A stretch of DNA of 64,000 nt. Source: Syntrophales bacterium (lineage in GTDB: Bacteria; Desulfobacterota; Syntrophia; Syntrophales; UBA2210). Positions 50,476 to 64,000 of this stretch are shown piece by piece. The translations under genes and the position numbers were made by a program. Each line of letters opens with the position of its first letter. Within the stretch, counting starts at the first letter, position 1. The notes below the pieces were generated by a model. That model had not been told where the DNA came from. It made no database searches and saw nothing but the letters and a program-made list of their open reading frames with translations. The stretch lies in the NCBI GenBank assembly GCA_963662405.2, contig CAXXKT010000001.1, positions 1,952,001 to 2,016,000 of the forward strand, written 5' to 3'.

Positions 50476-51513
50476 TTAGAATGTGTGGATTGCCGTTGAT
50501 TTAAAAGAAAAGAATGTCTCCGATCCCTCGCCGACCTCGAGGTCAAAGAGGGAGCTTTTGGTGATCAGCGATTTGAAGGTAACGTTTTCAATGCTCACAC
50601 TCACTTCGTAGTAGAGCCCCTGATCCGTCACCTCCGTGACATGTCCCTTGAAAGAATTTCTCATGCTGGAGACCAGCTTTCTCTTGCTGAGGACGACATC
50701 TTCGGGACGTATGGCGATATAGCCGTGCCCGTTTTCAGGTGTTCTCCCCAGCTCGATCTCCAGTCCGTTTATGACGGCCTTGGTATCATGGAAACGGGCC
50801 GTAAACAGGTTTTTCATCCCGACAAAATCAGCGACAAACGTGGATCCCGGTCTCTGGAAGATCTCTTTCATCCCTCCGACCTGCTTGATCCTTCCTCCGT
50901 CCATGACGGCAGCCCGGTCCGCGAGGGAGAGGGCCTCTGAGAAGTCGTGGGTCACCATGAGGAAGGTGGCATCCGTGTTTTCGTGGAGTCGTTTGAGTCC
51001 CTTTCGCAGATCCTCTCGGAATACCGGGTCCAGGGCGGAGAGGGGCTCGTCGAGGAGAAGCACCTGCGGGTTTACGATCAATGCCCGCGCCAGGGAGACG
51101 CGCTGGTTTTCCCCGCCGCTCAGGTTTGTGGGGAGACGCTGCAGGAGGTGGGCAAGGTTCAACTCTTCCACCAAGCGATCAAAGCGTTGTGTTGCCTCTG
51201 CCTTGGAGGTCTTATGGAAGTGGAGACCATAGGTGATATTGTCCTGCACCGTCAGGTGGGGAAAGAGCGAATAGTCCTGATAGACGATGGATATCCCCCT
51301 CTTTTCCGGTGGAAGTCCGGTGATGTTTCGGCCGTCGACGATGATGTGCCCGCTTTTGACCCGGATCAGCCCCGCGATCGCCTCGAGGAGCACCGTCTTC
51401 CCCGCCCCCGTGGGACCCATCAGTATGAAGAACTCGTTCTTCTCGATCGAGAGGTTGATTTCTCGGAGGTCGAATTCCCCCAGGTGGATGTCGACGTTAT
51501 CGATGTTGATCAT
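50476..51513 (-). CDS. wtpC: Tungstate/molybdate ABC ATPase with TOBE domain
   Basis: GPTGAGKT, LSGGENQR, DEPLSALD, C-terminal TOBE. Confidence 0.88.
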   Translation of the reverse strand: MINIDNVDIHLGEFDLREINLSIEKNEFFILMGPTGAGKTVLLEAIAGLIRVKSGHIIVDGRNITGLPPEKRGISIVYQDYSLFPHLTVQDNITYGLHFHKTSKAEATQRFDRLVEELNLAHLLQRLPTNLSGGENQRVSLARALIVNPQVLLLDEPLSALDPVFREDLRKGLKRLHENTDATFLMVTHDFSEALSLADRAAVMDGGRIKQVGGMKEIFQRPGSTFVADFVGMKNLFTARFHDTKAVINGLEIELGRTPENGHGYIAIRPEDVVLSKRKLVSSMRNSFKGHVTEVTDQGLYYEVSVSIENVTFKSLITKSSLFDLEVGEGSETFFSFKSTAIHTF

Positions 51514-52295
51514 GATCGCTCGGTGCTCCTGAGGGTGAGGATCCGCAAGACCAGAAAGAGAATCAGACAGATAGATACGAGCCACACCGCCACCGGTTGA
51601 GAATATTTAAGCCCGTAGCTTTCAAACCGTTCATACAACAGGACCGGCGCGATCATGGGGTGATACGCGACAATAACGACCGCCCCGAACTCGCTGATCG
51701 CGCGGGCGCTGCACATGATGATGCCGATCAGCATGCTGCGCCAGGCGAGGGGAAAGGTGATCCGGGTAAAGGTGCTGAACATGGAGGCCCCGAGGCTCCG
51801 TGATACGTTTTCGAGCCGGGGCGGGATGTTTTCAAATCCGTTCTTGACCGCGTTGACGTAGAAGGGAAGCCCCACAAAGGTGAGGACCACGACGATCCCC
51901 GTCACACTCCCCATGATCCTGATGCCGAGTTCGTTGAAAAACTGTCCGAGCCAATGTCCCCTCCCCGCGACGCTGAGGATCGCGATCCCCACGACCGGGT
52001 GGGGAATGACGATCGGGAGGTCGATGATGCTCTCTATCAGGTGTTTCCCTTTGAAATCGCTTCTCGCGAGGATATAGGCGAGTGGGGTGCCGAAAAGGAA
52101 GGCGATGACCGCGGCCAATCCGGCTGTGTAGATGCTCAGCCAGATCGACCGCACGACATCTTTGTCTTGAATGGTTTCCTTGAGCATGGATAGAGAAGGG
52201 GCCGTCAGCATCTGAATCAGCGGAAGGAGGATGAAGGCCATGATAACCAGCCCGCACGACACGGTGATCCAGAAAAACGGTTCCTTCTTTATCAT
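51510..52295 (-). CDS. wtpB: Tungstate/molybdate ABC permease
   Basis: DLPIVIPHPVVGIAIL, ARAISEFGAV.IVAYHP. Confidence 0.88.
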   Translation of the reverse strand: MIKKEPFFWITVSCGLVIMAFILLPLIQMLTAPSLSMLKETIQDKDVVRSIWLSIYTAGLAAVIAFLFGTPLAYILARSDFKGKHLIESIIDLPIVIPHPVVGIAILSVAGRGHWLGQFFNELGIRIMGSVTGIVVVLTFVGLPFYVNAVKNGFENIPPRLENVSRSLGASMFSTFTRITFPLAWRSMLIGIIMCSARAISEFGAVVIVAYHPMIAPVLLYERFESYGLKYSQPVAVWLVSICLILFLVLRILTLRSTERS

Positions 52296-52310
52296 TGTTT
52301 TTTCTGTTTC

Positions 52311-53297
52311 CTAGTTCTTGACGGTGACGAGGCCCTGAAGCTCTGAGGGGAGCTTCGCCTTCATCGCCTCAGAGGAAACCCTGCAGGGGACAAACGGAGG
52401 CTGCCCCATCTCCTCCAATATCTTAAGACCTCCTTCAGGGTCAAGCATATACGCGAGGAAGGCAACAGCGGCTTCCCGGTTGGGGGCGTTTTCGATGAGC
52501 GTGACGCCGTACGTACAGGATTTTCCTTTCATCTCCATATAGGTCCCCGGTTTTTTCCCCGTGACCTTTACCACCGCCTTTTCGTAAATCGGATCATATT
52601 TGTAATTCCCCAGGTTCATTTCGTCGGGAAGAACGATATATCTCAGCTTATGCTGGACCGCTACGGAAAGGTATTCCCAGGCATAGTCCATATTGCCGGT
52701 CTGGAGGAGAGAAATGAGTTCAACGGATTTGGGCCGGATATTTTCCTGGGGCCTGTTGGCCAGCAATTTATCGTAGAGACCCGGTTTCCCGAGTGCCTTT
52801 TCGGCGAGCTGCATCACCATCAGCGACCGGTAGCCGCAGGGATCGAGGTTCGGGTCGGAGTGGCCCCAGACAACGCCCTTTCTCTGGAGGATTTCGTACC
52901 AGTTGGAGGCGTTGATCTCACCGGCGAACCTGCTTTTGTCCGTGTAGCAGAGGACCAACTGGTTCGTTGCAAAACGGATGTTCAGGACGGAATACTGGGG
53001 GATCAGCAGTTTGTCGATCACCTTGTAGTCGGCCGAAGCCATGATATCGCACGGTTTTTTGAGATCCGATATCTTCCGCGCGGCCTTCTGGCTCCCGCTT
53101 GCCTCGCGCTGGAGATCGACTTTCGGGTACTTTGCCTCAAAGGCCTTTTCCATGGCGGCGAAGGGGACGGTGAGGCTCCCGGCGTGGAACATGGTGAGTT
53201 TTCCCTCAGGTTCGGCAAAACCGGTTGCCGGAGCAATGAAAAAAAAGATTCCGGTCAGTAAAAACCCCAACCACCTCCATCTGTTAATGGTCCTCAT
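52311..53297 (-). CDS. wtpA: Tungstate-binding periplasmic protein WtpA
   Basis: [41 protein letters not shown]. Confidence 0.92.
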
Positions 53298-53384
53298 GCG
53301 CTGTCTCCTTTCGCGATAAAAGATAAAAAATGTAACCCTCCAAATCGATCGTTTTTCCTACCTCACCCGAATTACAAAGTCAAT

Positions 53385-53500
53385 ATCAATATAAATGGTA
53401 ATTATTGATTCAAATTAGTAATTATTAATAATGATGAGTATATCTGAGTATGTTACGGTTATTATTAGTTCTAAATAGTAAGTTTTTATCTTGACAAAGG
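53385..53500. promoter_or_regulatory. AT-rich divergent control region with phased repeats
   Basis: gtaattatt at 53398 and 53418, gttattatt at 53458; TTGACA at 53491. Confidence 0.5.
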
Positions 53501-53569
53501 TTTTTGATGTGATAGGGCATACTCGCGTTTGAAGTAATACGTAATTTCTAAGGATTGGAGGAGCGTGTT

Positions 53570-55615
53570 GTGAAGATAAGATACGTGGTTCTGTCGATAC
53601 TTGTAGGCATTCTTTTTCTCTATGGATCTCAGTGTTGGGCTGATTATGAGGTATACACGCTTGGTGAGGTGGTGGTCAGTGATGAAACCCCGGCGGTTGA
53701 GGAAACTGCTCAAGTAACCGTTATCACAGCTGAAGACGTTAGGGCGACAAACAGCCACTCGGTCGCGGATGTCCTGAAATCTGCGCCGGGGCTGTACGTG
53801 ACCACGGGGAGGAAGGCCGAGACGAATGTCTCGATTCATGGGTTTAATCAGGATAAGGCGTTGGTCCTTATCGACGGTATCCCCTACTACGAGACATATT
53901 ACGGCAAGCTGGATCTCAATAAGATCCCGGCTGATATTATCGCCAAGGTTGTCGTCACAAAGGGGGCCGCATCAGTGCTGTACGGTGCCAATGCGGAAGC
54001 GGGTGTCATTAATATCGTGACCAAAAAGGCGGGCAAAGAAGCTTCGTCCTCTGTGAACGTTGAGATTGGTGATAACCACTATCAGAAGGCGTCCGGGTTT
54101 TTCGGCGATACGAGCGGCATATTCAATTACTCGGTCAATATCCAACGAGAGGAAAGTGATGGATGGAATATGTCCGACGATTTTGACCCGGTTGTCGGAT
54201 CGTACGGGAAAAAGAAAAAGATGGTGGAGGAGGTCCTCGAAGACGGAGGCTTCCGCAATAATTCCGATTATGAGAGTACGAATCTGTGGGCGCGATTCGG
54301 TATAGAGCCGAATCCGGATTCGGAACTGTATGTCAGTTTCCGTGTTGCCGAGGGGGAGAAGGGATTCCCTCTGAACATCTACGAGAATCCGACCCATTTT
54401 ACGGACAGACCCGCCTTTTCATATCTTGCCCGATCGGAGTACCGGGACACCGGTGTTGATCTGAGCGGACGGCATGCAATCAATGACTTCGTGACGTTGA
54501 AGGCGAAGATCTTCTATCATGAGCATGAAGATGACTATATATCATACGAAGATACGACCTATGACTCCAAGATGGCGGTCAGCACCTTTGATGACAAATG
54601 TTACGGGTTAAGCCTGTTCACCGACTACAAGCCGGTTGAGTGGGATACGCTCAAGGCATCCATTCATTACAAGGTCGATTCTCACAAGAGCCGGGACGAC
54701 GATTATCTCCCCTTTGACGAAGCAAAGGCGAATACCGGGTCGGTCGGTATCGAGAACGAGTGGAATGCCGTAGAAAATCTCTCGGTAGTGGCAGGCATAA
54801 GTTACGATTGGTTCGATGTGACCAAGGCTCAGTCAAGTGAGACCGACGACAACGGTGATTTTCTCAGCCAGGAAGATCTGACTGAGCCCGGCGTCAAGGA
54901 TTGTGTCAATCCCATGATCGGTGTGGTCTATTTCTTCCGGGACACAACAAAATTCTACGCATCGGTGGCTCAGAAAACACGGTTCCCCGTACTCCATGAA
55001 CTGTACTCCAGTAAATCGGGTAACCCCGATCTTGATGAGGAAAAAAGTATCAACTATACGATCGGCGTCTCACGTCCATTCTTCGATATGGTCACCATGG
55101 AGCTCGCTTTCTTTCACCACGATATCAGTGATCGGATCGGGCGTCCCAACCGCGATTACGATTATATGAATTATGATGAGATCGCCATGACCGGTTTCGA
55201 AATCATATCGGAGGCATATGTTGCCGAGGACCTTACGTTAAAAGCGGCATATATGTACAATGACGCCCGCGATAAGAGTAGGAACCGCGTTACTGACAAG
55301 GTGACGGATGTGCCCGAACATAAGATAGATCTGAGCGCTGAGTATGTTATCCCCTCCGTCAGGACAAAACTGAATGTGACCGGTTCATACATGGCCACGA
55401 TCTATTCGGAACTTCCTACGACAAGCAATCCGGACGATCCTGAACGTGAAGCGGACAATTATTGGCTTTTTAATATGAGGATCACGCAACCATTGACGGA
55501 GCACCTGGAGGTCTATGTCGCGGCCAATAATATATTCGATAACGATTATGAAGAAGAATGGGGATGGCCGGGACACGGGAGAGAAGTATGGGCCGGTCTG
55601 AGCGCTCGATTCTGA
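53570..55615 (+). CDS. TonB-dependent outer-membrane receptor
   Basis: Signal peptide, TonB box LGEVVVS, plug LVLIDG...KGAASVLYG...GVINIVTKK, terminal F. Confidence 0.95.
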   Translation: MKIRYVVLSILVGILFLYGSQCWADYEVYTLGEVVVSDETPAVEETAQVTVITAEDVRATNSHSVADVLKSAPGLYVTTGRKAETNVSIHGFNQDKALVLIDGIPYYETYYGKLDLNKIPADIIAKVVVTKGAASVLYGANAEAGVINIVTKKAGKEASSSVNVEIGDNHYQKASGFFGDTSGIFNYSVNIQREESDGWNMSDDFDPVVGSYGKKKKMVEEVLEDGGFRNNSDYESTNLWARFGIEPNPDSELYVSFRVAEGEKGFPLNIYENPTHFTDRPAFSYLARSEYRDTGVDLSGRHAINDFVTLKAKIFYHEHEDDYISYEDTTYDSKMAVSTFDDKCYGLSLFTDYKPVEWDTLKASIHYKVDSHKSRDDDYLPFDEAKANTGSVGIENEWNAVENLSVVAGISYDWFDVTKAQSSETDDNGDFLSQEDLTEPGVKDCVNPMIGVVYFFRDTTKFYASVAQKTRFPVLHELYSSKSGNPDLDEEKSINYTIGVSRPFFDMVTMELAFFHHDISDRIGRPNRDYDYMNYDEIAMTGFEIISEAYVAEDLTLKAAYMYNDARDKSRNRVTDKVTDVPEHKIDLSAEYVIPSVRTKLNVTGSYMATIYSELPTTSNPDDPEREADNYWLFNMRITQPLTEHLEVYVAANNIFDNDYEEEWGWPGHGREVWAGLSARF

Positions 55616-55732
55616 TAGGGTACGAGTTGATATTGTCCCGGAGGCGAGGGTGAGTAATGGGAGAGGGTCTGATGGACGGGGATGAAACCGGCCACAGACC
55701 CTCCATACCGTACGCAAGGTTAGTCCGGTAAC

Positions 55733-56437
55733 ATGAAATTTTGGCAATGTGTGGTTGCAGCCCTCTTGTTGCACATGGCGATTCTGATGATCCCGATAAC
55801 GGTGACGGACATAACTCGTGTGGGAGAATTCCGGCTGGTGATCTCTGAGACGGTTTCCACTCCGTCCGTATCGGCTGTGGTACCGGCCGTAAGACCACCT
55901 CAGGTGAAGAAACCGAAATCTATCATAAAACCGAAATCCATTGTGAAACCAAAACCAAAACCGAAACCGCCTGCGAACACGCCTGAGATCAAACCGCTCA
56001 AGAGGGACAGCATATCCGAACCTGTGGAAGGCCCATCGCTTCCGGCAGCCCCCGCACCGGAGACCATTGAGGTCGGGAACACCGATCCTGTCGAGGAAGT
56101 TCCTTGTGCCGGGCCGGAGATTTCTCAGACCGCAGAGGAGCGCGAACCGGTGGAGATGTCCTTTGGTACCTCGGGAGGACCGAAATTCCTCAAGCAGGTA
56201 CAACCGGTATATCCCCGGAAGGCAAAAATGTTACGGAAGAGAGGGGTCGTAACCCTCATGCTGACCATAGATAAAGACGGAACCCTGATTGATGTAGAGG
56301 TTGTGAAAGGCGCGGGGTACGGCTTCGATGAAGAAAGCATACGGGCCGTGAAGGAATCAACGTTCATCGGCGCCCGGAAGAACGGCAGGCCAATCGCCTG
56401 TAAGGCCTTACTGCCGGTACGATTTCGATTGAGGTGA
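55733..56437 (+). CDS. tonB: TonB
   Basis: TM anchor, KP repeats, YP..A..G, PVRFRL. Confidence 0.93.
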   Translation: MKFWQCVVAALLLHMAILMIPITVTDITRVGEFRLVISETVSTPSVSAVVPAVRPPQVKKPKSIIKPKSIVKPKPKPKPPANTPEIKPLKRDSISEPVEGPSLPAAPAPETIEVGNTDPVEEVPCAGPEISQTAEEREPVEMSFGTSGGPKFLKQVQPVYPRKAKMLRKRGVVTLMLTIDKDGTLIDVEVVKGAGYGFDEESIRAVKESTFIGARKNGRPIACKALLPVRFRLR

Positions 56438-56985
56438 ATGCGGTGATTGATTTGTTTGTGAAAGGGGGGCCGTTGATGTGGCCCATCGCCCTCTGTTCCG
56501 TTATCATGGTTGCCATCATTATCCACAAGACGGTCCAGTTCACGGTATTACTCCGGCAGCTTTCATGGCCCCGACAACGAATCCGCGAACAGAGACCCCG
56601 CCATATTGCACTCCTGCTGGATGTACTCGCTGCGAAACGGGATGAGGAGGAAATCGTTCTGGCGGGGAGCAGGAATCTGAAGATCCTGGAAAGAGGGGTC
56701 GGGGCCCTTTCGCTTATAGCGGCTATTGCGCCTTTGATGGGGCTCACCGGTACGGTTCTCGGTATGATCGAGAGTTTCAGGATTATGGCTGCCTCCGGCG
56801 GAACTGCCGGTATCGGGCTTCTGGCGAAAGGCATATGGGAGGCGCTCCTGACAACGGCGGCGGGACTCCTTGTCGCCATTCCCGCGGAGATCGGCTACCA
56901 CTATCTGGAACGGCGGCTGGATGAGATATCGATTGCCATGAAGTCTCTCGTGTTACGGTTTAGAGGTGCGGACGATGCAGTTTGA
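56434..56985 (+). CDS. exbB: ExbB/TolQ proton channel
   Basis: APLMGLTGTVLGMI, GIWEALLTTAAGL. Confidence 0.93.
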   Translation: MNAVIDLFVKGGPLMWPIALCSVIMVAIIIHKTVQFTVLLRQLSWPRQRIREQRPRHIALLLDVLAAKRDEEEIVLAGSRNLKILERGVGALSLIAAIAPLMGLTGTVLGMIESFRIMAASGGTAGIGLLAKGIWEALLTTAAGLLVAIPAEIGYHYLERRLDEISIAMKSLVLRFRGADDAV

Positions 56986-57373
56986 GCGAAAAAAGAGGGC
57001 TCCGATCCATACCAATATAGCCCCCCTTGTCGATGTCGTCTTTCTCCTTCTGCTCTTTTTTATGGTGACGTCTCATATCGCGCTGGACCCCTCCATCGAT
57101 ATCAGCCTGCCCCAGTCAAAGACTGCGCAGCATCATGAATCGGATCCTGTGACACTTTCCATATCGAGGGAAGGGGAGATCTTTATCGGTGGAAAACAGA
57201 TTACGATAGAAGAAATCTGCGGTGCCGTCCGAGCACATCTGCAGGGTTCCGATACGAAAACGATCAAAATAAGGACGGACAAAGATATCCCTGTGGGAAC
57301 CCTGATACGGGTGGTGGATGAGGTACGGCTTTCAGGGGCGCATGGGCTGAGCATCCTAACGGAAAGAATATGA
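56975..57373 (+). CDS. exbD: ExbD
   Basis: NIAPLVDVVFLLLLFFMV. Confidence 0.93.
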   Translation: MQFERKKRAPIHTNIAPLVDVVFLLLLFFMVTSHIALDPSIDISLPQSKTAQHHESDPVTLSISREGEIFIGGKQITIEEICGAVRAHLQGSDTKTIKIRTDKDIPVGTLIRVVDEVRLSGAHGLSILTERI

Positions 57374-57399
57374 GAAACGAGATGAATGGGAGGTAGAAG

Positions 57400-58533
57400 A
57401 TGTCGAATAGGTCTGTATATCTGTCTGTGGTCATGAGTGTCCTGCTCGTCATTTCTGTGTTCGGATGTGACCGTTCGGACAGGGCATCGAGGCTGGCGGA
57501 AAAAAACGATACCCACAAGGCTGGGGTCACCAAGAAAAGCGGGGGGATAAATGACCCGGTCATGTCTCGGGGGAAGGCCGGCGTCCATTCGGGATTGCAT
57601 ATTTCCGGCGAGGTTCGGCAGCAACTCACCTTGCAACGAGAGGACCTTGAGCGGTTGCATGCAGCGACCACACGAACGAATGAAGTTTTACGATCGGGTC
57701 ATTATCGCGGCGCGTTTACGTACCGTGGCCCCTCTCTCAGATCGCTCCTTGAATTTGCGGGCATAGATAAAAAGAGCTCCGATTTCAACAAAGACCTTGA
57801 TCTGGTGATCGTGGTGGAAAACGGCGAAGGTGAAGAAATCGCCCTCTCCTGGGGTGAGATCTTTTATCGGAACCCCGGAGATATAATCGTTGCCGTGGAG
57901 GCCGCGCCGATCCGACCGCATCATGAAAGAGACCGCATCCCCCGGGCCTATTGGCCGTGGCTCGATCAACTTGACCGTGAAATCGGTTTCCCCAAGCTTG
58001 TCGTTGCAAATGATTTTTATTCGGATCGCTCCCTCGAAGGGATTCGGCGTATTCAGGTGATCGATCTGCACCCCGCTGTGCAGCGGAAGAAGCAGAAAAT
58101 GCTCTTCTCGCCTTCTTTTTCCATATGCGGTGCCGTGGCCAATCCGGTTACCATATCGGTTCTCCCCGAGAAAAACTATGACACTGTTGTGTTCAAGGAA
58201 GTGGGGGACGGACAGGGATATCACGGGTTAAAAACGTTCGGGGGTGTGCCCCTCGTCGATCTGCTTGAACAGGCAGGGATGAAGGGTGATCTTGACACGG
58301 CCGTTGTCATCTCCGCCCCGGATGGGTACAGAACGACCCTCTCATATGGGGAGCTGTTCCTGTCGAACGGGGGGAAGGATATCCGTATCGGTGACACAAT
58401 GGGAGGTGAATATCTCACCAATAGAGGCAAATTCTTTGTGTTATTGCCGGACGACCTTTCCGCCGACAGGTCCGTCAAGGCCATTCAGGAAATCAGAGTG
58501 GTACCGCTGAGCCGAGAGAATCCCTCTGAGTAG
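57400..58533 (+). CDS. Lipoprotein with two tandem molybdopterin-binding (sulfite-oxidase-fold-like) domains
   Basis: Lipobox VFGC; ISGEV...YRGPSLRSLLEFAG...LSWGEI repeated as ICGAV...FGGVPLVDLLEQAG...APDGY...LSYGEL. Confidence 0.7.
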   Translation: MSNRSVYLSVVMSVLLVISVFGCDRSDRASRLAEKNDTHKAGVTKKSGGINDPVMSRGKAGVHSGLHISGEVRQQLTLQREDLERLHAATTRTNEVLRSGHYRGAFTYRGPSLRSLLEFAGIDKKSSDFNKDLDLVIVVENGEGEEIALSWGEIFYRNPGDIIVAVEAAPIRPHHERDRIPRAYWPWLDQLDREIGFPKLVVANDFYSDRSLEGIRRIQVIDLHPAVQRKKQKMLFSPSFSICGAVANPVTISVLPEKNYDTVVFKEVGDGQGYHGLKTFGGVPLVDLLEQAGMKGDLDTAVVISAPDGYRTTLSYGELFLSNGGKDIRIGDTMGGEYLTNRGKFFVLLPDDLSADRSVKAIQEIRVVPLSRENPSE

Positions 58534-58542
58534 ACGAGATCC

Positions 58543-59307
58543 ATGGAAAACGATGTACTGTTTATCAAGAACTGGATGATGGCGGCATGCGGCTTCTATC
58601 TGCTGTCGAGCCTTGCCTATCTTGTGGGTCGGAAACGCATAGCGGTTATATTGCTTGTCACCGGGTTGCTGTCCAATGGTGTTGCCCTCGTCGGCAGGGG
58701 ATATATCGAAAAAGCCTGGTATCCAGCCCTCATGGTGCCTGAGCTGTTTGTCCTTCCCGCGGCCATGGCCTTGACGATCGGTTTCCTGTTCAAGCGGCAA
58801 AGGGTCATCGAGGGCAGAGTGGCGCTTATTCCCTTTGCTGCCTGTTGTTGCGTAACGATGCTTCTGCCCGTTGAAGCAGCGCTCCCCTGGGTTAAACAGC
58901 AAACCGCCTCGGCCGCCCTCTTTTTCCTCACCGAAGCCCTGAGTTGCGCCTTATTGGTGATCGCCGGCGCCTGTGCATGTGCGTCTCTCGTTCCGAGGAC
59001 CGACAACAGTGTAATATCCTATAACGGGCTGGTCCTCTGGGGTTTTCTCGCCTTTACGCTCTGCCAGATATCGGGAGCCGTCTGGGCATATCTCGGGTGG
59101 TCATACCCGTTTTCATGGAGTCCACGGCATTTGACCAGCGCTTCCCTCTGGTGCCTGTATGCCGCTCTTATCCATGCCCATTTCACGGGGATACAGGAAC
59201 GGCTGAAGGCGATCCTGACCGCTTTTGGTATCATTCCAATCACATATATGGTCTATCATCATGAGATAGTCACACTCCTGCAGGTGGTATCGGCGAGGTT
59301 CACATGA
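58543..59307 (+). CDS. CcsA/ResC-like membrane protein with degenerate WWD motif
   Basis: GAVWAYLGWSYPFSWSPRH...WCLYAALIH. Confidence 0.75.
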   Translation: MENDVLFIKNWMMAACGFYLLSSLAYLVGRKRIAVILLVTGLLSNGVALVGRGYIEKAWYPALMVPELFVLPAAMALTIGFLFKRQRVIEGRVALIPFAACCCVTMLLPVEAALPWVKQQTASAALFFLTEALSCALLVIAGACACASLVPRTDNSVISYNGLVLWGFLAFTLCQISGAVWAYLGWSYPFSWSPRHLTSASLWCLYAALIHAHFTGIQERLKAILTAFGIIPITYMVYHHEIVTLLQVVSARFT

Positions 59308-60047
59308 ACCGGTTCATTCGATTTCTGACCCGTATGGAAACAGGTTTTTTCCTGTTGATCGTTGCGTCGGCACTGTTATTGACGGGGGGCATTATAGCCG
59401 ACGTGCATGACACGTCGCTCAGGGCATTAAATTTTCTCACCTTTCAGAAATGGTTTCCAAAACACTCCATGAGACCCCTCCTGTATGTGTGGATATTGCT
59501 GCTTTTCGGCATTTTTTTTCTTCTTGCCGTCAACACGTTTCTCTGCACGGTTTCCTATGTGAGAAACATGTCGAGGAAGGGACTGTCGGCGAGGAGATGG
59601 GGGATTGTTCTGTTCCATTGCTGCTTTTTGATGTTTCTCTCGGGACATTTTCTGTATGGATTTACGGGAATCTGTGAAAAAGTGATGGTTGAAGAAGATA
59701 TCCCCTGCACGATCCCTGCCCTCGGTCTGTCCCTTGTCCCCTTCGCGGTTGAAAAGGGTGTCCTGTCCGTTTACGGGCAAGAAGTCCCCGCGGCGGTAAA
59801 GGCGGGGATCACGGTGTCGGATGAAAGGGGCGGGGAGACGACAATACATCCGGCAACGCTGAGACCGAAGCGCGCATTGGGATACACCGTTCATATCTCC
59901 ATGAAAGATAAAGCCCTTTCTCATTCGCAGGTCGGCATCATCGTGCGCAAGCAATACGGTCTCGACCTTTTGATTGGAGGGGGGATCACCATGCTGATGG
60001 CCATGGCGCTCTTCCTGCCGAGCGTGTTTCGTTCCCGTGGCCGTTAG
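59304..60047 (+). CDS. Short ResB/CcsB-like membrane protein
   Basis: LLAVNTFLCT, WGIVLFHCCFL...GH, periplasmic beta domain, C-terminal TM. Confidence 0.65.
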   Translation: MNRFIRFLTRMETGFFLLIVASALLLTGGIIADVHDTSLRALNFLTFQKWFPKHSMRPLLYVWILLLFGIFFLLAVNTFLCTVSYVRNMSRKGLSARRWGIVLFHCCFLMFLSGHFLYGFTGICEKVMVEEDIPCTIPALGLSLVPFAVEKGVLSVYGQEVPAAVKAGITVSDERGGETTIHPATLRPKRALGYTVHISMKDKALSHSQVGIIVRKQYGLDLLIGGGITMLMAMALFLPSVFRSRGR

Positions 60048-60145
60048 TCTTTGCCGTCCGCCGTTATGGCCTGGATCATCGGAAGAGCGCATTCTGTTTT
60101 GAGCCGTGATTCACTTCGCAATGTCGTTGACCATCATACCGGAAC

Positions 60146-61045
60146 ATGGTAAAAACCACGAATATGGAGAAAGAACTTCTCACCACGAAAGAACTGGCGG
60201 GTTTTCTGCGGTTCAACGAGAAGAAGATCTACCAACTCGTCAGAGACAGTGGTATCCCCCATGTCAAGATTGCCGGGAAGTGGTTGTTCCCCCGGCGGCA
60301 TGTCCTTCGCTGGATAGACGAACAGGTGCAGAGGGAGAAGGATGTCCTGATTGTCGGGAGCGACGATGCCCTCATGACGAGGCTCGTTTCCCTCTATTCT
60401 CAGGAAAATTTCCCCGAGTCCCAGGCCTTCTACTCGTCCGTGGGAAGCCTGAAGGGAATCCAGTCTCTGATGCGGATGAAGGGGCAGGCCTGCTGCACCC
60501 ATATCCTGGATATCGAGACAGGCGTGTATAACCTTCCCATCCTCGAGAGGATGCTTTCACCTCAGAGATATGTGGTCATTCACCTCTGGTGCCGGGAGCA
60601 GGGACTGATCGTGGCGAAGGGGAACCCCCTCGGGATAAAGACACTCGAAGATATTGCGGAAAAAGGGGCGCGATTCATCAATCGGAATGTCGGTTCAGGG
60701 ACGCGGGTCCTCATCGACTATCTGATGAAAGAAAGAGGACTCGACGGACGAGAGATTACCGGTTTTACTACTGAACAAGACAGCCACATCGGGGTGGCGC
60801 AGAGGGTCTTCTTCGGAGAGGCCGATGTCGGTGTGGGAATCGAGTATGTGACGCACCTCCTCGGTCTTGACTTTATCCCCCTCAGGGAAGAGAACTTCGA
60901 TCTTGTCATCCCCGAGGCGCTCTGGTCCACGGTCCCCATCAAACGCTTTGTCTCCTATCTGGACCCCGCACGGATCAAGGGACTCTCTGCAAATCTGCCG
61001 GGGTACAACCTGAAAGATACGGGAAAGCTGGCCTTCCAAAATTGA
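60146..61045 (+). CDS. Excisionase-type HTH fused to a molybdate/tungstate PBP-like domain (regulator)
   Basis: LLTTKELAGFL...KIAGKWLFP; GSDD, VGSLKG, REQGLIV..GNP, FINRNVGSGTR. Confidence 0.88.
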   Translation: MVKTTNMEKELLTTKELAGFLRFNEKKIYQLVRDSGIPHVKIAGKWLFPRRHVLRWIDEQVQREKDVLIVGSDDALMTRLVSLYSQENFPESQAFYSSVGSLKGIQSLMRMKGQACCTHILDIETGVYNLPILERMLSPQRYVVIHLWCREQGLIVAKGNPLGIKTLEDIAEKGARFINRNVGSGTRVLIDYLMKERGLDGREITGFTTEQDSHIGVAQRVFFGEADVGVGIEYVTHLLGLDFIPLREENFDLVIPEALWSTVPIKRFVSYLDPARIKGLSANLPGYNLKDTGKLAFQN

Positions 61046-61073
61046 TCCTCGAAGGGATCGAGTGAAAAAAAAG

Positions 61074-61102
61074 TTGCTTTCTCCTGTCGATTGGATTAGC
61101 AT
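61074..61102 (+). promoter_or_regulatory. Sigma70 promoter
   Basis: A-tract plus TTGCTT-N17-TAGCAT. Confidence 0.6.
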
Positions 61103-61131
61103 CCCTCCGAATCTGGGAGGTGAGTAAGGTC

Positions 61132-61206
61132 ATGATGACGATTGTACGGTACGATTCTTACTGGTGGTGGCAAAACAACATAGGGAGTCGTCCGTCCGCA
61201 GGCTGA
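61132..61206 (+). CDS. Tryptophan leader peptide 1 (MMTIVRYDSYWWWQNNIGSRPSAG)
   Basis: Three tandem TGG codons; upstream GGAGG; downstream terminator. Confidence 0.88.
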   Translation: MMTIVRYDSYWWWQNNIGSRPSAG

Positions 61207-61228
61207 TGCCAGCAACAACCGGAAACCG

Positions 61229-61264
61229 AAGGCCGTGGGCAGGCAGTGCTCGCGGCCTTTTTTT
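61229..61264 (+). terminator. Attenuator terminator 1
   Basis: aaggccgtgggca-ggcag-tgctcgcggcctt plus T tract. Confidence 0.9.
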
Positions 61265-61297
61265 ATGGTGAATCAAGATACTGTGAAGGAGCATACG

Positions 61298-62590
61298 ATG
61301 GATCAGACATTCATGCCGAAGATCAAGGCAGAGAAAGAACTTCAGGCACTCCAGCTTGAGGGGCTCAAATGGACCGTTGCCCATGCCTATCAGGGGTCGG
61401 ATTTCTATCGCCGACGGTTCGATGAGGCGGGGGTGAAACCGGAGGACATCCGAACCCTCGATGACCTGCGCAGGCTCCCCTTGGTCACCGCCCAGGACCT
61501 TCAGGAGCAGTACCCGTGGCCCCTCCGATCGGTTCCCTTCGATCAGATCGTTCGCCTCCACGCCTCCTCGGGGACGACGGGGAAGCGGAAGGTGATGATC
61601 TACACGGCGCGCGACATCGACGACTGGGCAAACATGTTTGCCCGCTGCTACGAGATCGCCGGCCTGACGCGGGAGGACCGGATTCAGATCTGTGTCGGGT
61701 ACGGAGTCTGGACCGCCGGTGTCGGTTTCCAGCTTGGGTGTGAGCGGTTCGGTGCCCTCGCCGTCCCTGCCGGACCGGGGAATATGGAGATGCAGATGCA
61801 GTTCCTCGAGGACTTCCAGCCCACCGTCATCTGCGCGACGGCATCCATGGGGCTCCTGATGGCCGAGGAGGTCGAGAAGAGGGGATTGAAAGACAAGATC
61901 AACGTCAAGAAGGTGATATTCGGGGCGGAACGTTCCAACGACGCCATGCGGGAGACCATCAAGGGCCTGCTCGGCGCGGAGCAGACCTTCGACATCCCGG
62001 GCCTCACGGAACTGTACGGACCGGGGACCGGCCTGGACTGCGAACACCACACCGGCATCCACTACTGGGCCGATTACTACATCATGGAACTCCTTGATCC
62101 CGATACACTCGAACCGGTCTCCGACGGTGAGATCGGTGAGATGGTCTATACGACCCTCCGCAAGGAGGGGGCGCCCCTGATCAGGTACCGTTCCCGTGAC
62201 CTGACGCGGTTGATCCCCGGCACCTGTCCCTGCGGGTCGATCTTCCCGCGGCACGACCGGCTGCTGGGGCGGTCGGACGATATGTTTATCATCCGGGGGG
62301 TCAATATCTATCCCGGCCATATCGACGAGATCCTCTCGGGCCAGGAGGGGATCGGGACCGAGTACCAGATACATCTCGATCGGCGGGATGACGGAAAGGA
62401 CTACATGACGGTACGCATCGAACGGGTCGAGGGAAACCGTGCCGACGACGACAGCAGGATCGCCTCCCGGATCGAGAGCGCTGTCAAGAAGGGGATTATG
62501 GTAAGCGGGAAGGTGGAGATCGTCGATTATCACGCTCTCCCGAGGACGGAGCGTAAGTCGAAGCGTCTCTTTGACCACCGTGATGAATAA
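61298..62590 (+). CDS. Phenylacetate-CoA ligase family (PaaK-like; predicted indoleacetate-CoA ligase)
   Basis: HASSGTTGK, GLTELYGPG, IRYRSRDL, GRSDDMFIIRGVNIYP. Confidence 0.9.
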   Translation: MDQTFMPKIKAEKELQALQLEGLKWTVAHAYQGSDFYRRRFDEAGVKPEDIRTLDDLRRLPLVTAQDLQEQYPWPLRSVPFDQIVRLHASSGTTGKRKVMIYTARDIDDWANMFARCYEIAGLTREDRIQICVGYGVWTAGVGFQLGCERFGALAVPAGPGNMEMQMQFLEDFQPTVICATASMGLLMAEEVEKRGLKDKINVKKVIFGAERSNDAMRETIKGLLGAEQTFDIPGLTELYGPGTGLDCEHHTGIHYWADYYIMELLDPDTLEPVSDGEIGEMVYTTLRKEGAPLIRYRSRDLTRLIPGTCPCGSIFPRHDRLLGRSDDMFIIRGVNIYPGHIDEILSGQEGIGTEYQIHLDRRDDGKDYMTVRIERVEGNRADDDSRIASRIESAVKKGIMVSGKVEIVDYHALPRTERKSKRLFDHRDE

Positions 62591-62603
62591 ATGTGAAAAA
62601 AAC

Positions 62604-62632
62604 TTGCTTTCCGGGATAAATTGCTTTAAAAG
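62604..62632 (+). promoter_or_regulatory. Sigma70 promoter
   Basis: A-tract plus TTGCTT-N17-TAAAAG; parallels 61074-61102. Confidence 0.55.
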
Positions 62633-62662
62633 CGGAAAATCAACCGTGTGGATGGAGACGAG

Positions 62663-62737
62663 ATGAAACCGGTCAACAACCTTTCGACAAACTGGTGGTG
62701 GTGCGAAATAACAGGGAGAGGTCTGTTCGCCGTGTAG
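62663..62737 (+). CDS. Tryptophan leader peptide 2 (MKPVNNLSTNWWWCEITGRGLFAV)
   Basis: Three tandem TGG codons at codons 11-13 as in leader 1; GGAG RBS. Confidence 0.88.
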   Translation: MKPVNNLSTNWWWCEITGRGLFAV

Positions 62738-62760
62738 ATCAGGACATTATGCAATTACAG

Positions 62761-62795
62761 AGGCCGTGAACAGATCGTGTTCACGGCCTTTTTTT
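62761..62795 (+). terminator. Attenuator terminator 2
   Basis: aggccgtgaaca-gatcg-tgttcacggcct plus T tract; antiterminator ggtctgttcgc can pair with gtgaacagatc. Confidence 0.9.
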
Positions 62796-62834
62796 GTAAA
62801 AATCTGCGGTACAACAGGTGAAATGGAACAAACG

Positions 62835-64000
62835 ATGAAAAAGAAGATTCTGATGGGAAATGAGGCGATCGGACGGGGACTGATCGAAGCGGGGTGCACG
62901 CTCATCTCCTCCTATCCGGGGACGCCGGCCTCGGAGATCCTGGAGTCGGCCGTTACCTTTGCCGGGGACGCCCCCCGGCCCGTCCATATCGAGTGGTCGA
63001 TCAACGAAAAGGTGGCCTATGAGGTCGCCCTGGGAAACAGCTCTTCGGGGAAACGCTCCGCCGTCGCCATGAAACAGGTGGGACTCAACGTGGCCTCCGA
63101 TCCCTTCATGCGGTCTGCCTACCTGGGGGTGACGGGAGGGATGGTGGTGGTGGTCGCCGACGACCCCGGTCCCCACAGCTCGCAGACGGATCAGGACAGC
63201 CGGTTCTTTGCGCAGTTCGCGCGCATCCCGGTCTTTGATCCGTCGAATCCCGCCGAGGCGAAGGAGATGGTGGAACGGGCCTTCGAGCTCTCGGAGCGGT
63301 ACGAGATCCCCGTGATGCTCAGGCCGACGACGCGGGTCTGTCACGCCCGGCAGGGGGTGGCCCTCGAGAAACCGCAGGAGATCGAACGCCGGGCCCATTT
63401 CAAGAAGGACCCGTCCCGCTGGGTCGCGACGCCCCAGTTTATCCCGGCCCTCCACCGGCGGCTCAATGCCACGATCGACGAGATAGCCGGTCTCGAGGAG
63501 ATGTATCCTTCCCGTATCGCCGGGAGCGGATCGTCACACATCTGCATCATTTCGTCGGGGGTCGCCTGCGCCAACATCTACGAGATCCTGGACGATATGG
63601 GGCTCCTGGGAACGATCGATCTCTTCAAGGTCGATCTCCCCTATCCCCTCAACCGCGACTTCATCGAGGCGATCAATGCCGGATACGAACGAATCCTCGT
63701 TGTGGAGGAGACCTACCCCACCATCGAGATGCAGCTCGCGAACCGGTCGATCAGGGGGCGGACCCTGAAGGATGTCCCCGACTACGGCGAGCTGACCTCC
63801 GACGTGATCGAGAAGATCCTCAGACAATTTCTGGATGTCCCCGGCGCACCCGCGGGAGATACGAAAGAGGCGGGGGGCATCAGGCCGAGCCTCTGCCCCG
63901 GCTGTCCCCACCGGGCCGCCTTCTACGCGATCAGGACCACCTTTCCGAAGGGGATCTTCCCCAGCGATATCGGCTGTTACACCCTGGGGATGAATTTCGG
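62835..64000 (+). CDS. iorA: Indolepyruvate:ferredoxin oxidoreductase alpha subunit (partial, runs off window)
   Basis: LMGNEAI.RG, SYPGTPASEI, EWSINEKVA, MKQVGLNVASDP, LCPGCPHR, SDIGCYTLG; absent from the ORF track. Confidence 0.95.
   Translation, partial: MKKKILMGNEAIGRGLIEAGCTLISSYPGTPASEILESAVTFAGDAPRPVHIEWSINEKVAYEVALGNSSSGKRSAVAMKQVGLNVASDPFMRSAYLGVTGGMVVVVADDPGPHSSQTDQDSRFFAQFARIPVFDPSNPAEAKEMVERAFELSERYEIPVMLRPTTRVCHARQGVALEKPQEIERRAHFKKDPSRWVATPQFIPALHRRLNATIDEIAGLEEMYPSRIAGSGSSHICIISSGVACANIYEILDDMGLLGTIDLFKVDLPYPLNRDFIEAINAGYERILVVEETYPTIEMQLANRSIRGRTLKDVPDYGELTSDVIEKILRQFLDVPGAPAGDTKEAGGIRPSLCPGCPHRAAFYAIRTTFPKGIFPSDIGCYTLGMNF

Follow-up and report, generated by a model that had tools for sequence, protein, structure and literature searches.

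The stretch of Syntrophales bacterium DNA analysed here (the window: 64,000 nucleotides, positions 1,952,001 to 2,016,000 of contig CAXXKT010000001.1, called C1 below) ends, on its forward strand, with the gene for an AMP-forming arylacetate-CoA ligase (430 aa; 61298..62590) and with iorA, which encodes the alpha subunit of a predicted indolepyruvate:ferredoxin oxidoreductase (IOR) and starts at 62835. Each of these two genes is preceded by its own short leader open reading frame (ORF) with three consecutive tryptophan (Trp) codons and by a terminator. Leader peptide 1 (MMTIVRYDSYWWWQNNIGSRPSAG) runs from ATG 61132 to TGA 61206, and leader peptide 2 (MKPVNNLSTNWWWCEITGRGLFAV), which is conserved in relatives, from ATG 62663 to TAG 62737. 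Both are 24 aa long with WWW at codons 11-13 (61162-61170 and 62693-62701), have 11 codons beyond the last W, and show a distance of 51 nt between the stop codon and the T-run of the terminator. The original prediction, made from the letters of the window, had described two such leader/terminator units of common architecture, and this was confirmed by the sequence and by terminator calls. The units, which lie 1.5 kb apart, are each complete with a predicted promoter and are alike in spacing, promoter context and terminator stem; no terminator was called between the ligase gene and promoter 2. Predicted promoter 1 (61074..61102) consists of a -35 box TTGCTT (61074-61079), 17 nt and a -10 box TAGCAT (61097-61102). 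Predicted promoter 2 (62604..62632) starts 13 nt past the ligase stop codon and consists of TTGCTT (62604-62609), 17 nt and TAAAAG (62627-62632), the common pattern being TTGCTT-17 nt-TA..A(T/G). The positions of promoter 1 are kept in the ligase leaders of 5 relatives, and in an alignment of 14 leaders the CTTG..T and T.T.A columns of promoter 2 were invariant or almost so. The boxes of the promoters proposed earlier are thus conserved in position, but neither promoter was called by a consensus scan, and TTGCTT matches the -35 consensus at only 3 of 6 positions. We consider both as plausible but unproven, on the strength of conservation rather than of the scan. No Rfam family reached its gathering score over the leader region, where there were sub-threshold matches only, and Trp_leader, which we take to be the Rfam family of trpL-type leaders, gave no match at E <= 5 in 60900-63000. 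No further leader with terminator was found in the 8 kb downstream of the window.

Both leaders are followed by an intrinsic terminator with a 14-bp stem, terminator 1 at 61228..61265 (stem 61228-61260, T-run from 61258; folding energy -25.8 kcal/mol) and terminator 2 at 62759..62796 (stem 62759-62791, T-run from 62789; -23.8 kcal/mol). The 11-bp antiterminator that had been proposed for leader 2 is present (62720..62776): 62720-62730 pairs with 62766-62776, with two G-U pairs and a duplex energy of -18.8 kcal/mol. Leader 1 also has a predicted antiterminator (61190..61244), found by constrained folding, in which 61190-61203, a 5' strand situated inside the last leader codons, pairs with 61232-61244 (12 pairs, two mismatches; duplex -17.4 kcal/mol). 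When folding was constrained by the position of the ribosome and carried to the terminator loop, antiterminator 1 reached -18.1 kcal/mol for a ribosome on the W codons vs -6.2 for one at the stop, and antiterminator 2 reached -18.7 vs -0.3 kcal/mol. Only 1 of 200 shuffles was as good as antiterminator 2, and a matched change (T>C with A>G) occurs in the antiterminator and terminator of loci L034 and L035. In the whole genome, a strong terminator followed 4 of the 6 short-ORF matches with TGG x3, vs 0 of 179 for 26 other tripled codons, and for this reason a chance origin of the leader-terminator pairs is excluded.

Both units therefore present the features of trpL-type attenuators, i.e. a tandem-Trp leader ORF, an intrinsic terminator and a computed antiterminator that is mutually exclusive with it. 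When Trp-charged tRNA is plentiful, the ribosome would reach the leader stop and mask the 5' strand of the antiterminator, and the terminator would form. When Trp is scarce, the ribosome would stall on WWW and the free antiterminator strand would capture the 5' arm of the terminator, which would let RNA polymerase proceed. The leader geometry thus predicts read-through only under Trp scarcity. The reverse behaviour, in which the leaders would act as arrest peptides of the TnaC kind and turn the genes on in Trp excess, appears to us extremely improbable. The leaders do have 24 residues with a W at position 12, and we take the hallmarks of TnaC to be W12, D16 and P24 followed by the stop; Asp16 and Pro24 are both absent (the two leaders have N16/G24 and I16/V24), which places them outside this group. 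In addition, relatives differ in leader length (about 14-39 aa) and in the C-terminal residues, only the W run being kept. The terminators are intrinsic, and a ribosome held at the stop would mask the antiterminator, so transcription would still terminate.

The genome (G000; 3 contigs, 100% complete) was scanned for other leaders of this type. There were 8 hits among 311 short ORF matches with WW; four have WWW directly before genes, and one of the remaining four overlaps a tRNA-like gene recognised by eye. The four WWW leaders with terminator, which have a common fold logic, precede the trpE operon, a stand-alone trpB2, the ligase gene and iorA. The trpE operon (G000:C1:2089076-2096623) comprises trpE-G-D-C-F-B-A and a further gene, presumably prephenate-dehydrogenase-like, and supplies the Trp biosynthesis genes for which the original prediction had suggested a search. 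Here and at trpB2 (G000:C1:784476-786023), a second hairpin with T-run comes after the first. A leader rich in tyrosine (Tyr) and phenylalanine (Phe) codons and a terminator precede the gene for DAHP synthase (G000:C1:2127176, minus strand; L173), and an Ile/Thr-rich leader with terminator precedes citramalate synthase (G000:C3:185299, plus strand; L174). With trpE, trpB2, DAHP synthase and citramalate synthase as targets, the leaders identified here mark biosynthetic genes. No Trp leader was found on the genome's two other iorA genes or on its two other close PaaK paralogs. The four WWW leaders would form a four-member Trp-starvation regulon, in which a salvage unit composed of the ligase and iorA would be a third arm beside the trpE operon (de novo synthesis) and trpB2 (indole salvage). 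An unlinked TrpR-like gene (G000:C1:824695-824985) encodes a protein 50% identical to the PF01371 protein of another iorA locus, L132, where the TrpR gene is directly upstream of iorA. In an inspection by eye only, no TrpR operator was identified.

The ligase scored 406.8 bits against the PaaK equivalog TIGR02155, below the cut-off of 646.3, which leaves it outside that family. Its matches in the PDB include 2y27 and 4r1l, the latter, presumably the Bacteroides enzyme, being a distant relative at 349.5 bits. It carries the signature VGYGVWTAG.GFQ / GAER (VGYG(V/L)WTAG.GFQ and G(A/S)ER in its subfamily overall), compared with YGYGLFTGGLG.HY / GAEPW in canonical PaaK. It represents a PaaK-like subfamily of its own and, with homologs in iaa-like clusters (see below), is likely an indoleacetate-CoA ligase. 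One could think instead of a general arylacetate salvage, in which the same anabolic route would yield Trp, Phe (from phenylacetate) and Tyr (from 4-hydroxyphenylacetate) alike, with Trp as no more than a sentinel. This is unlikely: the leaders have W runs only and a separate Tyr/Phe leader sits on DAHP synthase, the paralogs of both enzymes (two PaaK-type, two IorA) are devoid of Trp leaders, the gene context described below points to indole-3-acetate (IAA), and the signature departs from that of PaaK at positions that we assume to line the aryl pocket. It is favoured by the database name of these proteins, phenylacetate-CoA ligase, and by the fact that characterised IORs act on phenyl-, hydroxyphenyl- and indolepyruvate, the IOR-linked ligase of Bacteroides having been assayed on all three acids (PMC13285125, accessible part).

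iorA (609 aa) is cut by the end of the window (62835..64000) and continues to G000:C1:2016664, 664 nt beyond. The protein scored 642.8 bits against TIGR03336 (cut-off 650.9) and contains the domains POR_N, TPP and Fer4; its nearest named relatives are from Syntrophaceae/Syntrophales. It is directly followed by iorB (C1:2016661-2017167), as the original prediction had asked to be checked. IorB is a Pfam POR protein for which the best NCBIfam model is the IOR beta subunit (TIGR03334), with scores below all NCBIfam cut-offs. Alpha and beta genes are thus adjacent, with thiamine pyrophosphate (TPP) and Fe-S domains. Next come dctP-dctQ-dctM (C1:2017187-2020030), encoding a tripartite ATP-independent periplasmic (TRAP) transporter. 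The solved structures nearest to DctP are 4n6d, 4pgn/4pgp and 4nap (E about 1e-99 to 1e-108); the next PDB match, at 6e-27, trails them by some 70 orders of magnitude. A model of DctP (pLDDT, a predicted local confidence score, of 93) matched best Desal_3247 and Dde_0634 (the protein of 4nap), with 47-51% identity in the structural alignment and, for this group, Z scores of 41.8 (root mean square deviation (rmsd) 1.7, 311 residues aligned) and 38.9 (rmsd 2.6, 306 aligned). According to the accessible text of two papers that cite Vetting 2015, Dde_0634 binds IAA (PMC9973260, PMC9543091). DctPQM is therefore predicted to be an importer of indole acids.

Could uptake be the main benefit, with DctPQM importing indolepyruvate (or D-Trp) for direct transamination, and ligase and IOR only recovering the IAA that arises from indolepyruvate breakdown? 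In favour of this, the Dde_0634 entries 4pgn and 4nap presumably hold indolepyruvate and D-Trp, and at one locus (L074) the leader does precede dctP. In most loci, by contrast, it lies directly before iorA, many leader-bearing loci show no such TRAP genes, and here the ligase carries a leader of its own; we therefore find this proposal very unlikely. Beside many loci of the same iorA clade, in other families, a branched-chain-type ATP-binding cassette (ABC) transporter takes the place of TRAP (L052, L060, L086-L112, L123, L125, L130). No conserved, linked aminotransferase was found among the loci examined; one follows the operon in G142, and the homolog of this enzyme in the present genome (56%) is unlinked. 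G142 is a single-contig 2.1-Mb genome without trpA, trpC and trpD and with trpB1. Its locus (L177; G142:C1:604000-622000) has ligase-iorAB-dctPQM without a leader, is split by three restriction-modification-like genes, and is followed by the aminotransferase, which is of the pyridoxal phosphate type.

The distribution of the iorA leader was determined on 61 loci from named genomes and on a 301-genome sample of the phylum, in which 159 genomes had a match and 90 of the listed matches were fetched. A FastTree tree was built from 147 of 153 loci (protein >= 480 aa); it gave long-branch warnings, so clade borders are approximate and we claim no order of events from it. The leader counts are likewise descriptive, since related loci do not count as independent and some were fetched in duplicate. 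Under a strict rule (WW leader plus terminator, in loci with enough upstream DNA), a Trp leader was found at 56 of the 100 assessable loci of the core clade that holds this iorA (107 loci), compared with 0 of 21 in a paralogous clade that includes the genome's two other iorA genes. Elsewhere there was 1 in a neighbouring 15-locus group and 0 in a 4-locus group. The background of the rule was 19 hits in 885 kb, and the rule misses some leaders, three of which (L036, L100, L122) were recognised by eye. The leader occurs in at least 8 families, and no convincing Phe/Tyr leader was seen upstream of any fetched iorA. In a test of the antiterminator duplex, no more than 10 of 200 shuffles did as well for 28 of the 57 distinct leaders (median -15.0 vs -10.9 kcal/mol). 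In the neighbouring iorA group, trpB2 was nearby at 8 of 15 loci. We rejected the idea that the operon generally answers a Trp auxotrophy, as trpC was found in 69 of the 79 genomes tested. G049 (98% complete, 120 contigs) has a WW leader before iorA, and no trpA, trpC, trpD or trpB of either type was found in it.

The ligase leader has a more local distribution. It was flagged in 10 of 64 rows, corresponding to 6 genomes after removal of repeats and one artefact. In G004 it ends immediately past WWW. The terminator stems of trpB2 and trpE are partly alike with that of the two units described here. These comparisons suggest that the ligase probably gained its leader recently and locally, as a copy of a lineage-wide attenuator module, and that the iorA attenuator is likely older.

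Gene context provides indications on the substrate. In G049, G088 and G327, which are Desulfobacterota genomes without trpA and trpC, members of the ligase subfamily (64-71% identity) occur among genes for hydantoinase A/B, a B12-mutase and a molybdoenzyme (L186, L188 and L187, respectively); G049 has a CoA-transferase there in addition, and G088 a DctP with 60% identity. These clusters resemble the iaa cluster of Aromatoleum, which we take to include hydantoinase and molybdoenzyme members, and the resemblance points to IAA as the probable substrate of the ligase. The three are part of a set of five genomes lacking both trpC and trpA (5 of the 10 trpC-negative ones; completeness >= 97%), all of which carry the ligase subfamily. 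The hydantoinase B of the IAA-degradation route was not found in the 100%-complete genome studied here and was found in 1 of 40 relatives. With regard to direction, acyl-CoA synthesis is the favoured reaction of AMP-forming ligases, a point made for the IOR-linked ligase of Bacteroides in the accessible part of PMC13285125, while fermentative IORs, according to the same text, adjoin a kinase and a phosphate acyltransferase or an ADP-forming ligase. This bears on an oxidative use of the genes, from Trp via indolepyruvate to IAA-CoA, or on their participation in IAA degradation, the attenuators being vestigial or serving another purpose. Pyrococcus and Aromatoleum do use IOR oxidatively, clusters that look degradative contain members of the ligase subfamily, and some relatives have a decayed or truncated ligase leader. 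Yet the leader geometry predicts repression by Trp, the partner ligase is AMP-forming and thus unlike those of fermentative IORs, this genome yielded no catabolic hydantoinase B, and the iorA leader has been retained across families; we hold the oxidative proposal to be highly improbable.

Expression under Trp scarcity, as predicted from leader geometry, taken together with an AMP-forming ligase, argues for a sequence of import, activation, reductive carboxylation and transamination to Trp. DctPQM would import IAA; the ligase would form IAA-CoA, with conversion of ATP to AMP; IorAB would reductively carboxylate IAA-CoA with CO2 and reduced ferredoxin to indole-3-pyruvate; and an unlinked aminotransferase would convert indole-3-pyruvate to Trp. 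The locus thus probably encodes a Trp-starvation-induced salvage route (IAA to IAA-CoA to indolepyruvate to Trp), of which we infer the switching, the substrate, the direction and the aminotransferase step. The same anabolic use had been put forward in the original prediction. It has gained from the finding of iorB, of the trp genes and of a TRAP binding protein close to an IAA binder, and has lost from the rarity and lability of the ligase leader and from the missing aminotransferase.

Several observations weigh against this salvage route. In full-length leaders, stalling of the ribosome does not displace the terminator as the lowest-energy fold; the switch would therefore have to be kinetic, as in classical attenuators. 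By the strict rule, 44 of 100 core-clade loci have no leader, whole subgroups among them, and the other 29 of the 57 leaders were indistinguishable from shuffles in the duplex test, which is a crude one. The ligase leader is confined to 6 genomes, all with ligases at least 85% identical, and is decayed in G001, where the start codon and one W codon are lost. IORs, like the Bacteroides ligase, accept a broad range of substrates. Catabolic-looking clusters also contain members of the ligase subfamily, and the ligase alone therefore gives no flux direction. No aminotransferase lies within the iorAB-dctPQM operon, where the original prediction had suggested looking for one. Finally, since 69 of 79 genomes retain trpC, the route would seldom be essential and would in most cases relieve de novo synthesis rather than substitute for it.

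A broader proposal seems to us possible rather than probable. The Desulfobacterota-wide IOR clade, together with a ligase subfamily and an importer particular to it, might be a dedicated IAA-to-Trp module under Trp-starvation control (through attenuators and, in places, linkage to TrpR or trpB2), with IAA-CoA as a branch point with IAA degradation. Reverse IOR might then be the sole enzymatic source of Trp in some lineages without trpA/C/D/B, such as G049, and syntrophic communities might cross-feed on IAA as a precursor of Trp. The usual annotation of IOR and PaaK-like genes is fermentation of aromatic amino acids or degradation of phenylacetate. A switch that responds to amino acid starvation indicates from the sequence alone in which direction flux runs, and would lead to re-annotation of a large clade of these genes, in syntrophs and sulfate reducers, as serving Trp biosynthesis; IAA released by Trp fermenters would be a cheap cross-feeding currency for energy-limited anaerobes. 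Direct tests are offered by the four sister leaders of this genome, by the clear signature of the ligase subfamily and by the solved structures of DctP's relatives.

Upstream, window positions 51510-61045 hold an unrelated block of genes, most of them with presumptive names: molybdate/tungstate-type ABC genes, a TonB-dependent receptor, TonB-ExbBD, a CcsB-like gene and a regulator with helix-turn-helix and periplasmic-binding-type domains. About 0.9 kb past dctM lies a presumably transposase-like gene (G000:C1:2020972-2022207).

The two units resemble the trpL attenuators of the E. coli trpEDCBA type in having a tandem-Trp short ORF, an overlapping antiterminator and an intrinsic terminator, in line with the general attenuation rule (PMC1183508, accessible part). 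They differ in their targets, which are an acyl-CoA ligase and an operon for a 2-oxoacid:ferredoxin oxidoreductase and a TRAP transporter. As to the chemistry, Methanococcus maripaludis converts aryl acids to aromatic amino acids via IOR (Porat 2004, as cited in the accessible part of PMC4162585), and the same aryl-acid route is cited for Methanobacterium thermoautotrophicum in that of PMC13285125. The succession of aryl acid, aryl-CoA, arylpyruvate (by reverse IOR) and amino acid would be common to both cases, whereas the system described here is bacterial, apparently Trp-specific, and equipped with a dedicated importer and RNA-level sensing of an amino acid; its iorA is about 44% identical to the sole methanogen match fetched. 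Early labelling work in the rumen reportedly showed formation of Trp from IAA. In Bacteroides thetaiotaomicron, IOR likewise adjoins an AMP-forming arylacetate-CoA ligase ('IA ligase'), for which the authors propose a role in biosynthesis; unlike for the present locus, no attenuator is mentioned in the accessible part of that paper (PMC13285125). The iaa cluster of Aromatoleum/Azoarcus encodes the indoleacetate-CoA ligase IaaB, the binding protein IaaM, IaaL and IaaGH (PMC8360864, accessible part). It has in common with our operon the uptake of IAA and its activation to IAA-CoA, and homologs of our ligase and DctP occur in similarly composed clusters; it serves IAA degradation, while our operon contains IOR and no degradative genes. 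The accessible parts of PMC12358799 and PMC4641369 add nothing on mechanism, and a literature search that covered few of the subscription papers on attenuator surveys turned up no account of leader-peptide attenuators for these genes. A related entry exists for Geobacter, where a row in Table 2 of Aklujkar 2009 (PMC2700814), labelled 'tryptophan (iorAB-paaK)', files iorAB-paaK under tryptophan biosynthesis and lists a conserved 5' sequence upstream; this is one row, and the section gives no leader peptide, mechanism or substrate. The pathway idea is thus already in print (Methanococcus, Bacteroides and the Geobacter row), and what is new here is an attenuator of its own for the ligase, a predicted regulon of four members and evidence from gene context on the substrate. 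In sum, this is a known switch on an unexpected target, with known chemistry behind it.

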